Source of the DNA: a virus
Taxonomy: Duplodnaviria; Heunggongvirae; Uroviricota; Caudoviricetes
Virus record (IMG/VR): IMGVR_UViG_2869924733_000008
Length of the DNA stretch: 39,122 nucleotides
Direction: 5' to 3' (one strand)
This document shows, in pieces, positions 32,159 to 37,169 of the stretch. A program made the translations under genes and the position numbers. Numbering within the stretch: position 1 is the stretch's first letter; each line of letters opens with the position of its first letter. A model generated the notes under the pieces. That model was not told the DNA's origin. It saw only the letters and a list, made by a program, of their open reading frames with translations, and did no database searches.

Positions 32159-32166
32159 TGAAGTGG

Positions 32167-33006
32167 TCAACAAAAACTGGCCACCGAGTTAGAGTTTTTC
32201 CAGTATCGATTTTCCGATTCGTTTGGGGGTAACCCACCGTTATATTCGTGCGGTCTTAGTGCGCTGTAATATCCAACGATATAGTCCGTTATGGCGTGAG
32301 CTGCCTCGCTGAAGCTTACGTAACCCACCACCGGCATCCATTCGTTCTTCAGACTCCTGAAGAAGCGTTCCATTGGGCTGTTATCCCAGCAGTTTCCGCG
32401 CCGGCTCATACTCTGTCTGATCTGGTATCGCCACAATAACTGCCGGAACTGCCTGCTCGTATAATGACTGCCCTGATCGCTGTGGAACATCACCCCGCCG
32501 GGCTTACCACGGGTTTCCCATGCCATTTCCAGCGCTTTCATGGTGAGCCTGCTGTCCGGCGAGAACGACATGGCCCAGCCCACTGGTTTTCTTGCGAACA
32601 GGTCGAGAACAACGGCGAGGTACGCCCAGCGCTTACCCGTCCAGATATAGGTCACATCACCGCACCACACCTGATTTGGCTCGGTCACGGCGAACTGCCT
32701 TTCAAGGTAGTTAGGGATAGCAACATGTTCATGACCACCACGTTTATACCGGTGAGTCGGCTGCTGACAACTGACCAGCCCCAGCTCTTTCATGAGCCTG
32801 CCAGCAAGCCAGCGTCCCATCTGGTAGCCTCTCCGGGTTGCCATTGTGGCGATGCTTCTTGCTCCGGCCGAACCATGGCTGATGCCATGTAGCTCAAGTA
32901 CCTGACTGCGTAATACAGCCCGTCTGCCGTCTGGTTTTTCAGGACGGTTTTTCCAGTATCTGTAGCTGCTGCGATGAACCCCGAACACTTGGCAGAGTGT
33001 GACCAC
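32167..33006 (-). CDS. insO: IS911 orfB (transposase catalytic part)
   Basis: ..[49 protein letters not shown].. matches recalled IS911 OrfB. Confidence 0.8.
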
Positions 33007-33074
33007 AGGATAATGCGCTCTGAGTTTCCCGATTATCGAGAACTGTTCAGGGAGTCTGACATCAAGAGCGCGGT

Positions 33075-34295
33075 TGTAGATTCAATCTGTCAATGCAACA
33101 CCCCTTTCAATTATCTCTTTCGGTGTTTTGAACTTCAGTGTCTTTCTCGGTCTGTTGTTTAGCTGAGCAGCAACCAGATCTAGTTCATGTTGAGTATATT
33201 GGGCAAGACATGTCTTTTTAGGAAAGTACTGCCGAATTAGCCCATTTGTGTTCTCATTTGTTCCCCGCTGCCAAGGACTCTGAGGATCGCAGAAGTAAAC
33301 TTTAACGCCGGTGCTGACAGTAAATTCTAGATGTCTGGCCAGTTCCATTCCTCTGTCCCATGTCAGTGATTTTCTGAGTTCTGACGGTAAACTCAGGAAT
33401 TTGTCGGTAAGAGCCTGATTTACTGAGACAGAATCTTTGCCCCTGAGTCTAAGGATGATCGTATAACGTGATTTTCGGTCTACAAGTGTGGCTATATGAG
33501 AGTTTTTTGTACCTGAGACTAAATCGCCCTCCCAATGCCCCAGAGAGCGTCTGTTATCGATATTTCGGGAACGTTCGTGAATTGGTGTTCCGTTCACTAT
33601 GTTAATCGTACCTCTTTCGCCTTTGCGGGTATGACGCCTGCCATGGCGAAGGCTATGCGACCGTCGCAGATGCTGTATATTCAGGTGGTGTAGCGCTTCA
33701 CGGCTACGAAAGTACAGCGTTTTATAAATTGTCTCAGGTGATATTCGCAGCGTTTTTTGACGTGGTTTTGTTCGCCTTAACCATCCTGATATTTGCTCTG
33801 GAGACCATTTCATCTCCAGCTTTTCCAGAACAAGCTTTCGCAATGGTAAATTTTGATCCAGTAAGCACGGTTTTGGCCTTTTCGCCATTCTGTTGGCTCG
33901 GTTATTAGCATCAACAGCTTTGTAATAGCGTCTGCCCCGATTACGCTGAACTTCACGTGAGATCGTCGAAGGACTGCGATTCAGCGCAGTAGCTATCGCA
34001 CGAATGCTCATTTTGGCTGACAAACCAGCTCGTATCTCCTCGCGCTCAGACAGTGTCAGGTGAGCTACAGCCCGCTTACGCTCATGGGGTTTTATGCCGC
34101 CAGTATCCCTTAACATAGTGAAGATCGTTCCGGGTTTTGAACCCAGGATATTCGCTATTTCACTGAAGCCTGTTCCGTTCTTCCATAGTTCAAAAACAGA
34201 GGCTTTTTCCTCTGCTGTAAATGTTCGTCTCATTCAAAAAACCTCCGCAACCCCATGTTTTCACATAACTGTTGCGTTGACCAATTGAATCTACA
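33075..34295 (-). mobile_element. IS30 (1221 bp) inserted in IS911 orfA
   Basis: IS30 terminal repeats; 2-bp duplication (GT on the plus strand) at 33073-74 and 34296-97. Confidence 0.9.
33082..34233 (-). CDS. insI: IS30 transposase (383 aa)
   Basis: Full-length, identical protein to the other intact copies. Confidence 0.95.
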
Positions 34296-34527
34296 GTAGC
34301 CTTTTTTAATATTTCATTCTCCATTTCAATGCGTTGTAGCTTTTTCCTCAGCTTACGTATTTCGATTTGTTCTGGTGTTATCGGAGAGGCTTTTGGTGTT
34401 TTGCCCTGACGCTCATCACGCAGTTGTTTGACCCATCTTGTCATTGTGGAAAGGCCAACATCCATAGCTTTGGCGGCATCTGCCTGAGGTGTACTGGCAA
34501 TAGCGGACACTACCATTTGTTCTTTTT

Positions 34528-35346
34528 TTAAGCAGCCATCTGATGATATTTTTCCTTGAAGGCTGCCGGGGAGATATTCCCCAGACGAGAGTGACGACGC
34601 TGACGATTGTAGAAAATCTCAATGTATTCCCGTATTACTGAGATGGCTTCATCCCGGTTATTAAAACGATAGTGGCTCAGGCTCTCATTTTTCAGCGTTC
34701 CCCAGAAGCTTTCCATCGGAGCGTTGTCGTAACAGTTACCTTTACGCGACATTGATGTTTTCAGACCAAACTGCTCCTGTATGACCCGGTAATCGTATGC
34801 GCAGTACTGTGAACCTCGATCAGAGTGGTGGATTAGCCCGGCAGGTGGGCGCTGGCTCCTGAGCGCCATAAACAGGGCTTTACCTGTCAGCTCTTTTGTC
34901 ATGCGCTCTCCCATGGCGTAGCCGACAATTTCGCACGTATAAACATCTTTGATGCCAGCGAGGTACAACCATCCCTCCTGTGTGGCAACATACGTCAGGT
35001 CCGCCACCCAGACCTGATTTGGTGCTGTAGGAGCGAACGTCTGGTTCAGCAGATTTGGCGCAACTGGCAGATTGTGGTTCGGGTTCGTAGTCGCTCTGAA
35101 CTTGCGTTTCTGCTTACAGCGTAGCCTTAGCTCCTTACGAAGACGTGCCAGTCGGTCACGACCAACGATGATGCCATTCTCTGCCAGCTCCGTCTGGAGC
35201 CGCCGGGTTCCATATGTTTCGCGAGTGCGGATATGTGCCACCTTAATCTCCAGTTTTAGCCGCTCATCACTTTGTTTTCTGTCTGAGGGTTCATGCTGTA
35301 CCCAGTTGTAATAACCGCCCCTGGATACACCAAATACCTGACACAT
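34528..35346 (-). CDS. IS600 orfB (272 aa)
   Basis: Same protein as 12891-13709 with three substitutions (S10G, S/C, R/K). Confidence 0.8.
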
Positions 35347-35423
35347 CGCTTCAATGGGAAATTGTTGTCGCCATTGTTCGATTAACGCGTATTTTTCAGC
35401 GACTCCTGTGCAAAATACGCTGT

Positions 35424-36644
35424 TGTAGATTCAATTGGTCAACGCAACAGTTATGTGAAAACATGGGGTTGCGGAGGTTTTTTGAATGAGACGAACATTT
35501 ACAGCAGAGGAAAAAGCCTCTGTTTTTGAACTATGGAAGAACGGAACAGGCTTCAGTGAAATAGCGAATATCCTGGGTTCAAAACCCGGAACGATCTTCA
35601 CTATGTTAAGGGATACTGGCGGCATAAAACCCCATGAGCGTAAGCGGGCTGTAGCTCACCTGACACTGTCTGAGCGCGAGGAGATACGAGCTGGTTTGTC
35701 AGCCAAAATGAGCATTCGTGCGATAGCTACTGCGCTGAATCGCAGTCCTTCGACGATCTCACGTGAAGTTCAGCGTAATCGGGGCAGACGCTATTACAAA
35801 GCTGTTGATGCTAATAACCGAGCCAACAGAATGGCGAAAAGGCCAAAACCGTGCTTACTGGATCAAAATTTACCATTGCGAAAGCTTGTTCTGGAAAAGC
35901 TGGAGATGAAATGGTCTCCAGAGCAAATATCAGGATGGTTAAGGCGAACAAAACCACGTCAAAAAACGCTGCGAATATCACCTGAGACAATTTATAAAAC
36001 GCTGTACTTTCGTAGCCGTGAAGCGCTACACCACCTGAATATACAGCATCTGCGACGGTCGCATAGCCTTCGCCATGGCAGGCGTCATACCCGCAAAGGC
36101 GAAAGAGGTACGATTAACATAGTGAACGGAACACCAATTCACGAACGTTCCCGAAATATCGATAACAGACGCTCTCTGGGGCATTGGGAGGGCGATTTAG
36201 TCTCAGGTACAAAAAACTCTCATATAGCCACACTTGTAGACCGAAAATCACGTTATACGATCATCCTTAGACTCAGGGGCAAAGATTCTGTCTCAGTAAA
36301 TCAGGCTCTTACCGACAAATTCCTGAGTTTACCGTCAGAACTCAGAAAATCACTGACATGGGACAGAGGAATGGAACTGGCCAGACATCTAGAATTTACT
36401 GTCAGCACCGGCGTTAAAGTTTACTTCTGCGATCCTCAGAGTCCTTGGCAGCGGGGAACAAATGAGAACACAAATGGGCTAATTCGGCAGTACTTTCCTA
36501 AAAAGACATGTCTTGCCCAATATACTCAACATGAACTAGATCTGGTTGCTGCTCAGCTAAACAACAGACCGAGAAAGACACTGAAGTTCAAAACACCGAA
36601 AGAGATAATTGAAAGGGGTGTTGCATTGACAGATTGAATCTACA
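35424..36644 (+). mobile_element. IS30 (1221 bp) inside IS600 copy 3, opposite orientation to its host element
   Basis: IS30 terminal repeats; 2-bp duplication at 35422-23 and 36645-46. Confidence 0.9.
35486..36637 (+). CDS. insI: IS30 transposase (383 aa)
   Basis: Full-length, identical protein to the other intact copies. Confidence 0.95.
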   Translation: MRRTFTAEEKASVFELWKNGTGFSEIANILGSKPGTIFTMLRDTGGIKPHERKRAVAHLTLSEREEIRAGLSAKMSIRAIATALNRSPSTISREVQRNRGRRYYKAVDANNRANRMAKRPKPCLLDQNLPLRKLVLEKLEMKWSPEQISGWLRRTKPRQKTLRISPETIYKTLYFRSREALHHLNIQHLRRSHSLRHGRRHTRKGERGTINIVNGTPIHERSRNIDNRRSLGHWEGDLVSGTKNSHIATLVDRKSRYTIILRLRGKDSVSVNQALTDKFLSLPSELRKSLTWDRGMELARHLEFTVSTGVKVYFCDPQSPWQRGTNENTNGLIRQYFPKKTCLAQYTQHELDLVAAQLNNRPRKTLKFKTPKEIIERGVALTD

Positions 36645-37169
36645 GTTGCTTTTTTTAATATATCTCGCTCAAGGCGAGCTTCATTTAACGCCTTACGCAG
36701 TTGCAGAATTTCAGATTCCAGTTCAGCCACCGTGCGGGAACCAGGAGTACCGAGCCCTTTTCTGGCGGCGGTAACCCATTGTCCTAAAGTGCCTTCAGGA
36801 AGGGATAATCGGGAAGCGCCTTCACTGATCGAAAATTGATTTTCAAGAACCGTTCTGACAGCTTCGGCTTTGAACTCTTTAGAGTAACGTTGGGTTTTTC
36901 TGCTCATTATTAGCTCCTTCTGATGCCATTCTATTTCAGGAAGGAGTGTCCGTTAAACTCAGGCTACCTCAGCCACCGTGTATTTCTGGTCAACAACCAG
37001 TTGAGCGGATTCGCGTTTAAACTCTGCGCTAAAATTTCTTTTTTTCATTGGAGCACCTGTGTTGTTCTGAGGTGAGCATATCACCTCTGTTCAGGTGGCC
37101 AAATTCAGTGTGCCACTTCATATCTTAAACTACCGGAATGAACTGCTGCATGGAGAAACGCTTTACCTA

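Follow-up and report, generated by a model that had tools for sequence, protein, structure and literature searches.

A duplication-less IS911 copy probably marks where a Rac-type prophage of Shigella dysenteriae was once rearranged

Results

We studied the segment 32159-37120 of a 39,122-nt stretch of viral DNA (Caudoviricetes; IMG/VR record IMGVR_UViG_2869924733_000008), which is called the window in its full length. Here, insertion sequence (IS) DNA stands between phage replication genes and an integrase gene. We hold, with a probability of roughly 0.85, that the segment is a single IS911 and marks the joint left by an old IS-mediated rearrangement of a Rac-type prophage, which lies beside ttcA on the S. 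dysenteriae chromosome CP027027.1. The initial annotation of this DNA had read the segment as a composite of two IS911 copies and as the signature of an IS-mediated deletion or recombination. What stands of that signature is the scar, the flanks of which are never adjacent in intact relatives; a deletion alone is insufficient, since an inversion is needed as well. This inversion, a second scar held by IS600 and the splitting of the integrase remnant by IS630 had been missed.

Anatomy of the IS911 element

IS911 lies on the minus strand and its ends are exact at both coordinates, as first annotated. Its right inverted repeat (IRR) is found at 32159 (plus strand) and begins TGAAGTGGTCAAC, while its left inverted repeat (IRL) at 37120 (minus strand) terminates GTGTGCCACTTCA. 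Across the joints, the sequence runs from CAGTTGTCAGAT into TGAAGTGG on the left and from CCACTTCA into TATCTTAAAC on the right. When used as inverted-repeat queries, TGAAGTGGTCAACAAAAACTGGCCACC (32159) and TGAAGTGGCACACTGAATTTGGCCACC (reverse strand, 37120) give these two sites as the sole matches in the window, with 0 expected. The termini are imperfect 5'-TG...CA-3' inverted repeats as expected of the IS3 family. Between them, we find the following parts (TSD, target site duplication):

32159..33074, minus strand: IS911 segment 3, i.e., IRR and most of orfB (from repeat and reconstruction, and cluster name)
33075..34295, minus strand: IS30, 1221 bp, nested in IS911 right after the KKAT codons of orfA, TSD GT
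34296..34484, minus strand: IS911 segment 2, middle part of orfA; its first 2 nt are the duplicated GT
34485..36971, minus strand: IS600, 1264 bp without its IS30, nested in orfA of IS911, TSD GCC
35424..36644, plus strand: IS30 inside the nested IS600, TSD GT
36972..37120, minus strand: IS911 segment 1, i.e., duplicated GCC, start of orfA and IRL

Subtracting the nested IS30, the nested IS600 and the IS30 borne by the latter, together with one copy of each TSD, leaves a 1249-bp IS911. This reconstituted element has an intact orfA of 100 aa and an orfB in the -1 frame, which overlaps the end of orfA after an A-rich slippery site. As judged from the sequence, the arrangement is consistent with a -1 frameshift at that site. 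A single nucleotide separates the element from the uninterrupted IS911 that S. boydii L009 carries at this site, and the element falls 1 bp short of the 1250-bp reference IS911. IS911 was first described in S. dysenteriae.

Protein comparisons agree with this assignment. The called IS911 genes give Pfam matches to rve and HTH_Tnp_1, and the exact protein of the OrfB part belongs to a cluster named IS3-like element IS911 family transposase. The IRL end is 96-99% identical to annotated E. coli IS911. That is, the copy is like IS911 (IS3 family) in its terminal inverted repeats, orfA, the frame of orfB, length and cluster name. It differs in lacking the 3-bp TSD and in being broken by three nested IS, and it is hence predicted to be inactive.

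The nested elements are identified in the same way. IS30 has 1221 bp, the ends TGTAGATTCAAT and ATTGAATCTACA, a 2-bp duplication and a 383-aa transposase, with the cluster name IS30-like element IS30 family transposase. The nested IS600 has 1264 bp, TGAGGT... ends and GCC/GCC flanks (another copy at 23755-27577 has no duplication), and the respective cluster names are IS600 ORF2 and IS3-like element IS600 family. The source names of the exact proteins confirm IS911, IS600, IS30, IS630 and IS2.

One IRR and one IRL, pieces that sum to one 1249-bp copy after peeling, and TSDs on the nested IS make this a single IS911 with later nested insertions and no composite of two copies. The region is similar to a composite transposon in that it has several closely spaced IS and intervening DNA. 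Here, however, only one IS911 is present, the others are nested with TSDs of their own, and there is no passenger segment. Furthermore, the block of phage genes to its left (ydaT'-DUF977') is bounded by different IS (IS600, IS911), which are unable to act jointly.

Target site duplications

IS911 is flanked by GAT on the left (ending CAGTTGTCAGAT) and TAT on the right (starting TATCTTAAAC), i.e., there is neither a 3-bp nor a 4-bp duplication, and shifting the boundary at its ends still yields none. The initial annotation had noted the missing 3-bp repeat correctly, although its quoted left flank was one base short. The native flanks continue from ...CAGAT into GAAACAGG (DUF977) and from ...TAGCGA into TATCTTA (int). 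Respectively, the left flank is a DUF977-family (ydaW-like) gene of 140 aa in intact relatives. It is cut after codon 34, in agreement with the 34 codons counted before, and the intact gene continues GAT GAA ACA GGT past the cut. The TGA stop codon of the truncated gene is made of the first bases of IS911.

The remaining IS provide an internal control. Perfect TSDs of the expected length are directly observed for 9/12 IS copies in the window, and an independent IS911 in the sister genome L030 has GCT/GCT flanks. Because these nine copies and the L030 IS911 carry TSDs, the missing TSD of the window IS911 is informative. The three copies without TSD (IS911, IS600 at 23755-27577 and IS600 at 10348-13752) all lie between non-contiguous phage segments. 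Where duplications are missing, either recombination of IS copies or an adjacent deletion has been given as the cause (PMC11708052). The lack of a TSD marks this copy as rearranged; it is still an IS911 member.

Comparison with intact Rac-type prophages

We compared the window with the intact relatives L001, L002 and L005, where L005 is the Rac-type prophage at ttcA of E. coli FDAARGOS_944. In all three genomes, int points away from ydaT/ydaU/ydaV/DUF977, and the interval is occupied by xis, recombination genes and the immunity region. The same divergent layout is present in the phages vB_EcoS-666R9 (ON470614) and Rac-SA53 (KU052037). Intact Rac-type prophages have int diverging from ydaU/ydaV/DUF977 at a distance of about 9.6 kb, while the window has them in tandem, all on the plus strand. 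The native Rac order (int and xis divergent from ydaS/T/U/V/W) is thus absent. The alignment to intact relatives that had been proposed along with the initial annotation shows the DUF977 and int flanks of IS911 never adjacent in L001, L002 or L005. With no TSD after correction of the boundary either, both refuting conditions named in that annotation turned out in its favor.

The orientations are directly visible in the alignment to L005. Here, int matches in reverse (9218-10015 to 39122-38325), while ydaT'-DUF977' matches forward (19642-21754 to 27578-32158). Nothing in the window matched L005 10064-19641, i.e., about 9.6 kb with the int 5' end, xis, recE, cI/cro-like genes and ydaT, which bears out the earlier claim that the integrase 5' end, xis and the early/immunity genes are lost. 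Likewise, L005 beyond 21754, where the rest of DUF977, the nin genes, Q and the lysis genes lie, has no match. The window has lost the nin/Q/lysis/terS region along with the first 111 codons of terL. In comparison to intact Rac-type phages, the window therefore lacks the DNA from int nt 1-389 to ydaT and from DUF977 codon 35 to terL codon 111, and its replication block is inverted. The late genes at the left are in their native orientation relative to int. They are myovirus-like (E217-type Pfam hits), in contrast to the lambda-like late genes of L001 and L005. The prophage is a rearranged Rac-type remnant and no intact member.

The inverted replication block and a second scar

The replication genes and their left boundary comprise the following features:

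22466..23754, minus strand: terL remnant, residues 112-539 of a 539-aa TerL, 111 codons replaced by IS600 (tblastn, cluster names)
23755..27577, minus strand: IS600 (1264 bp) with IS2 and IS30, left edge of the inverted block; flanks GAG/GGT, no TSD of its own
24193-25523: IS2 in the boundary IS600, TSD GTAGC
26030-27250: IS30 in the boundary IS600, TSD GT
27578..27941, plus strand: last 32 nt of ydaT and 5' part of ydaU (replication initiator, DUF1376); 99.7% to L005 19642-20005, forward
27942..30427, minus strand: IS2 in ydaU, TSD GTCAG, itself with IS630; absent from L009
29199-30351: IS630 inside the ydaU IS2, TA/TA
30428..31289, plus strand: 3' part of ydaU; 98.6% to L005 20001-21754
31296..32042, plus strand: ydaV, DnaC-like helicase loader (IstB_IS21 ATPase fold); 100% aa identity to L005 ydaV, PF01695
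32057..32158, plus strand: DUF977 (ydaW-like), codons 1-34 of 140; PF06163

The block ydaT'-ydaU-ydaV-DUF977' (27578-32158) is inverted with respect to both int and the late genes. It holds only 2.1 kb of phage DNA (4.6 kb when counting the later IS2::IS630). At its left edge, the boundary IS600 has TerL residue 112 on one side and the final 32 nt of ydaT on the other; using the full-length TerL P0152 as tblastn query, the match opens with residue 112, right at the edge of IS600. In S. boydii L009, the identical two junctions flank a pristine 1264-bp IS600. That is, the IS600 at 23755-27577 is a second rearrangement scar, which bounds the inverted replication block. The IS2::IS630 in ydaU is a later, strain-level insertion: it is absent from L009, and L012 has the IS2 without the IS630.

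Integrase remnant and prophage site

The right flank of IS911 is intR starting at nt 390 of 1236; the first 389 nt (129 codons and 2 nt) are missing. A 5'-truncated integrase adjoining IS911 was thus rightly recognized, but the adjacent remnant is only 49 nt long and is followed by IS630:

37121..37169, plus strand: intR nt 390-438, frame ...ILNYRNELLHGETLYL, 49 nt, abutting the IS911 IRL; contiguous with 38325-39122 in the intact int of L001/L002
37170..38322, plus strand: IS630, 1153 bp, simple TA insertion in int (TA/TA); absent from L009, L012 and L013
38323..39122, plus strand: 3' part of intR up to the stop codon; ttcA is next in the source genome

The IS630 has 1153 bp, a duplicated TA target and a 343-aa DDE_3 transposase. 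Since it is missing from int in S. boydii L009 as well as in L012 and L013, its insertion is recent. The integrase frame had been described as open and without start codon. There is indeed no ATG; yet a GTG at 37095 within the IS911 IRL is in frame with int. The respective open reading frame (ORF; 37095-37187, MAKFSVPLH...) is in frame with the truncated integrase, and without IS630, as in S. boydii L009, it could extend to a predicted 290-aa IS911-int fusion without arm-binding domain.

The 3' part of int is 97.4-98.4% identical to Rac-type phage integrases and 99.1% to intR of the L005 prophage. The truncated integrase ORF 38283-39122 is present on the S. dysenteriae chromosome CP027027.1, where ttcA (PF01171, 311 aa) is immediately downstream, followed by dbpA and zntB. 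On the other side of the prophage, sister genomes carry a sit-like ABC transporter, uspF, ompN and ydbK past the leftmost tail gene. Given int beside ttcA and these outer left genes, the window represents one prophage at the Rac site. It shares with the Rac prophage of E. coli K-12 and intact Rac-type phages the site adjoining ttcA and an intR of 97-99% identity, and with the FDAARGOS_944 prophage the replication genes ydaT/ydaU/ydaV at 98.6% identity.

Age of the joints

Conservation of the joints is directly observed. All four (terL-IS600, IS600-ydaT, DUF977-IS911 and IS911-int) are base-identical in S. boydii CP026836.1, CP026824.1 and PSSP01000001.1, and the two IS911 joints are also found in UYIS01000019.1. 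Neither IS911 joint has a match in 5,426 complete E. coli genomes. In S. boydii CP026836.1, IS911 (1249 bp) and IS600 (1264 bp) are uninterrupted, ydaU is without IS2 and int without IS630. Since S. boydii shares the joints while its IS911 and IS600 are pristine, the rearrangement is older than the nested insertions of the window. We thus place it in a common ancestor of an S. boydii / S. dysenteriae lineage. Later, in this strain or close relatives, IS30 and IS600::IS30 would have entered IS911, IS2::IS630 ydaU, IS2 and IS30 the boundary IS600, and IS630 int.

Recombination at the locus is also seen within a single S. dysenteriae assembly (GCA_900618165.1). In its main contig (L021, UYIS01000021.1), ydaU-ydaV-DUF977' were deleted by recombination of two direct IS30 copies, one nested in IS911 and the other in the boundary IS600, while a 10-kb contig (L013, UYIS01000019.1) with frameshift-ridden genes keeps the undeleted block. 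The two forms may represent a mixed culture or an alternative contig of the assembler. This IS30 x IS30 deletion indicates that IS recombination at the locus still happens.

Proposed course of events

In window orientation, the ancestral order would have been late genes (leftward), terS/lysis/Q/nin (leftward), DUF977-ydaV-ydaU-ydaT (leftward), immunity/recET/xis/int (rightward) and ttcA. The present order is late genes (leftward), IS600, ydaT'-ydaU-ydaV-DUF977' (rightward), IS911 and int' (rightward). At minimum, one inversion and one deletion, each IS-mediated, would connect the two. Two orders of these events are equally parsimonious, and both agree with how the surviving IS ends are oriented. 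Order A would start with recombination of two oppositely oriented IS911 copies, one in codon 34 of DUF977 and the other at int nt 389-391, which inverts the block between them; an IS600-mediated deletion would follow, taking away terL 5' through ydaT and, with it, the reciprocal IS911 joint. Order B would start with IS600, inverted copies of which in terL and ydaT flip the block, and two now-direct IS911 copies, or one IS911 with an adjacent deletion, would subsequently remove DUF977 3' through int 5'.

As to the chemistry, RecA-type homologous recombination of IS copies is most likely, which we infer from the number of IS that Shigella carries (PMC7373316) and from how duplication-less IS are usually read (PMC11708052). 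IS911 and IS600 belong to the five IS that have expanded in every Shigella species, the chromosomes of which carry 229-348 IS each (PMC7373316). The window is similar to known duplication-less IS scars (IS150 in the LTEE, PMC11708052; Shigella IS rearrangements, PMC7373316, PMC8072062) in that an IS stands between ancestral non-neighbours, its TSD is missing and the genome is rich in further copies of its IS family. It differs in that the block is bounded by two different IS, which implies at least two superimposed events, and in that the reciprocal products are gone.

An inversion between the inverted IS630 copies (29199-30351, 37170-38322) was also considered and is ruled out. The copy at 37170-38322 is a simple TA insertion, as the 49 nt beside IS911 are contiguous with the rest of the intact int, and the other copy lies within an IS2 and has TA/TA flanks.

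Alternative explanations

Instead of homologous recombination, one IS911 (or a dimer or a one-ended event) might have attacked a second site in the same molecule, giving an inversion or an adjacent deletion, such that no TSD was ever formed. We regard this transposase route as unlikely, though it deserves serious consideration. The usual route of IS911 is copy-out-paste-in via a circle, which yields simple insertions. On the other hand, IS insertions without TSD have been directly observed to arise together with large rearrangements, and a fused OrfAB of IS3-family elements raises adjacent deletions (PMC11708052). Neither a second IS911 copy nor the reciprocal joint was found in the searches made, which also suits such an attack. 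Yet the many IS911/IS600 copies of Shigella are available as recombination substrates (PMC7373316), and sequence alone cannot separate the two chemistries.

The block 27578-32158 might also have been imported from a second lambdoid prophage by IS-mediated exchange, e.g., by a chromosomal inversion between prophages. S. flexneri has an identical YdaV, an intact DUF977 and a nin/Q region beside ycjZ' joined to IS600, and S. flexneri-like genomes have the truncated int at ttcA fused to another nin region, i.e., such exchanges occur. But E. coli FDAARGOS_944 carries the same block (98.6%) and int (99.1%) in one prophage at ttcA, and the 2.1 kb of phage DNA are boxed by IS within one prophage site. 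Two IS-mediated exchanges would still be needed, i.e., more events that explain nothing more, such that we consider an import improbable.

A single IS911 deletion, or recombination of two direct IS911 copies, might by itself have joined the replication module to int. It would account for the missing int 5' end, xis, early and immunity genes and for an IS911 without TSD, and the same event is the second step of order B. However, a deletion would have kept the orientation, while int and ydaU/ydaV/DUF977 are divergent in all intact relatives and in tandem here. Furthermore, a cut from int toward the replication genes would have taken ydaT/ydaU first, leaving no contact between DUF977' and int, and both the duplication-less second IS600 and the loss of nin/Q/lysis/terS would be unexplained. 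We thus give a deletion as the sole event very little credence; it is refuted by the differing orientation, which requires an inversion too.

An assembly artefact, or an ordinary IS911 insertion with a decayed or mis-called TSD, has practically no chance, since only the general difficulty of assembling IS-rich regions speaks for the former, while the joints are identical in at least five independent assemblies (four of chromosome scale, 5.0-5.1 Mb), and decay would not explain flanks that intact relatives carry in opposite orientation at a distance of about 9.6 kb.

Search for the reciprocal junction

For a rearranged IS911, the predicted reciprocal joints are CGTTATAGCGATAT followed by TGAAGTGGTCAAC (int 5' and IS911 IRR) and GTGTGCCACTTCA followed by GATGAAACAGG (IS911 IRL and DUF977 3'). 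The N-terminus of the Shigella-lineage IntR was reconstructed from L035, the C-terminal part of which shares V322 and E325 with the window int, unlike L005.

The following points weigh against an IS911 at a rearrangement joint within one Rac-type prophage. First, the predicted reciprocal ORF (IntR 1-130 plus 11 residues, two variants) is absent from a collection of 15 billion proteins, with no exact match and none among homologues either. Second, an exact scan for both reciprocal DNA joints gave 0 hits in species-representative genomes, which probably do not include the strain. Without an intermediate or reciprocal structure, it is by reasoning that we infer the order of events and any second IS911 copy. 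Third, the late region has no nucleotide similarity to the late regions of L001 or L005, and its place in the same ancestral prophage is argued from position and orientation only. The absent reciprocal joint fits order A followed by the deletion, or order B, and is weak evidence, since the searches did not extend to the rest of CP027027.1.

The proteins P0012/P0020 end with ...IRYSDI, which probably marks an IS600 joint in another genome. One set of candidates was rejected. The contig L014 and 13 similar ones, in which a 34-aa DUF977 product lies beside an intact immunity region, were tried as parental state and are truncated by the contig end. L014 is only 88% identical and ends with the native ...GATGA, and related partial products run to ...SDETG; the contigs are S. 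flexneri drafts.

Parallel events in other Shigella lineages

A 254-aa integrase remnant is widespread in Shigella and cut at differing places (L029-L038). The other cuts of intR include an IS600 at GAT/ATC (2 nt from the IS911 site), an IS600 at TAG/ATAATCC, and IS1 plus IS2 at nt 333-341. All were retrieved via one 254-aa ORF (GTG 38358), such that their clustering is partly an ascertainment effect. S. flexneri (L039-L048) carries an identical YdaV, an intact 140-aa DUF977 and contiguous nin/Q beside the ycjZ'-IS600 joint, away from ttcA. Its IS600 and IS2 at ydaT/ydaU are 56 nt and 144 nt from the window positions, respectively, in the same orientations. Because these breakpoints differ, the events of S. 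flexneri and the window are parallel rather than shared. Other lineages were also examined with regard to orders A and B. Shigella, including S. flexneri, cut int and ydaT/ydaU elsewhere, i.e., they provide parallel events and no intermediates.

Within intR nt 333-440, IS hits across lineages comprise IS911 at GA/TATC, IS600 at GAT/ATC, a second IS600, IS1 plus IS2, and IS630. The repeated, independent hits there and at the ydaT/ydaU boundary in separate Shigella lineages could reflect a structural hot spot, or selection that locks the prophage in place, but we find either doubtful as compared to neutral decay. If true, selection would act by destroying the integrase and the replication initiator of the Rac-type prophage.

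Implications for the prophage

As judged from its gene content, the remnant should be unable to excise or to replicate as a phage, because it lacks the arm-binding domain of the integrase, xis, the repressor region, Q, lysis genes and an intact terminase. In the same 39-kb prophage, ydaU is interrupted by IS2::IS630 and terL is truncated. Such IS-driven prophage decay is routine and has already been described for Shigella (PMC7373316, PMC8072062), and the significance beyond annotation is small. Still, the locus is a worked example of how an IS copy without TSD flags a rearrangement. Peeling nested IS with intact TSDs dates the events, i.e., S. dysenteriae has the rearrangement in common with S. 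boydii, and the nesting arose at strain level. The shared joints could mark a lineage, namely a clade of non-type-1 S. dysenteriae and S. boydii. For prophage predictors, the case is a caution: the 39-kb "prophage" should neither excise nor replicate.

Other IS copies in the window

In total, we count 13 IS copies or fragments in the window, which belong to 9 different IS. The late region has an intact transposase gene of ISEc20 (IS110 family; 4081-5277) and a truncated transposase of ISSfl3 (IS66 family; 9442-10332). The IS600 at 10348-13752 without TSD (CAG/TTG) lies between the ISSfl3 transposase fragment and a truncated tail-sheath-like gene, and it probably marks another deletion, in the tail region. 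It forms a three-level nest, with an IS30 within and, inside the latter, a 914-bp ISSfl7-like element of the IS5 family (11791-12704, TSD CTAG).

IS30 is found at the equivalent spot (after the KKAT codons, in the frameshift window) in IS911 and all three IS600 copies, i.e., at 33075-34295, 35424-36644, 26030-27250 and 10675-12813. IS30 prefers near-palindromic hot spots (PMC9333248). The placement fits this preference, and the frameshift region of IS3-family elements would be a recurrent IS30 target. The orientation of IS30 varies between the copies as well as between sister strains (L012 and L010 compared to the window).

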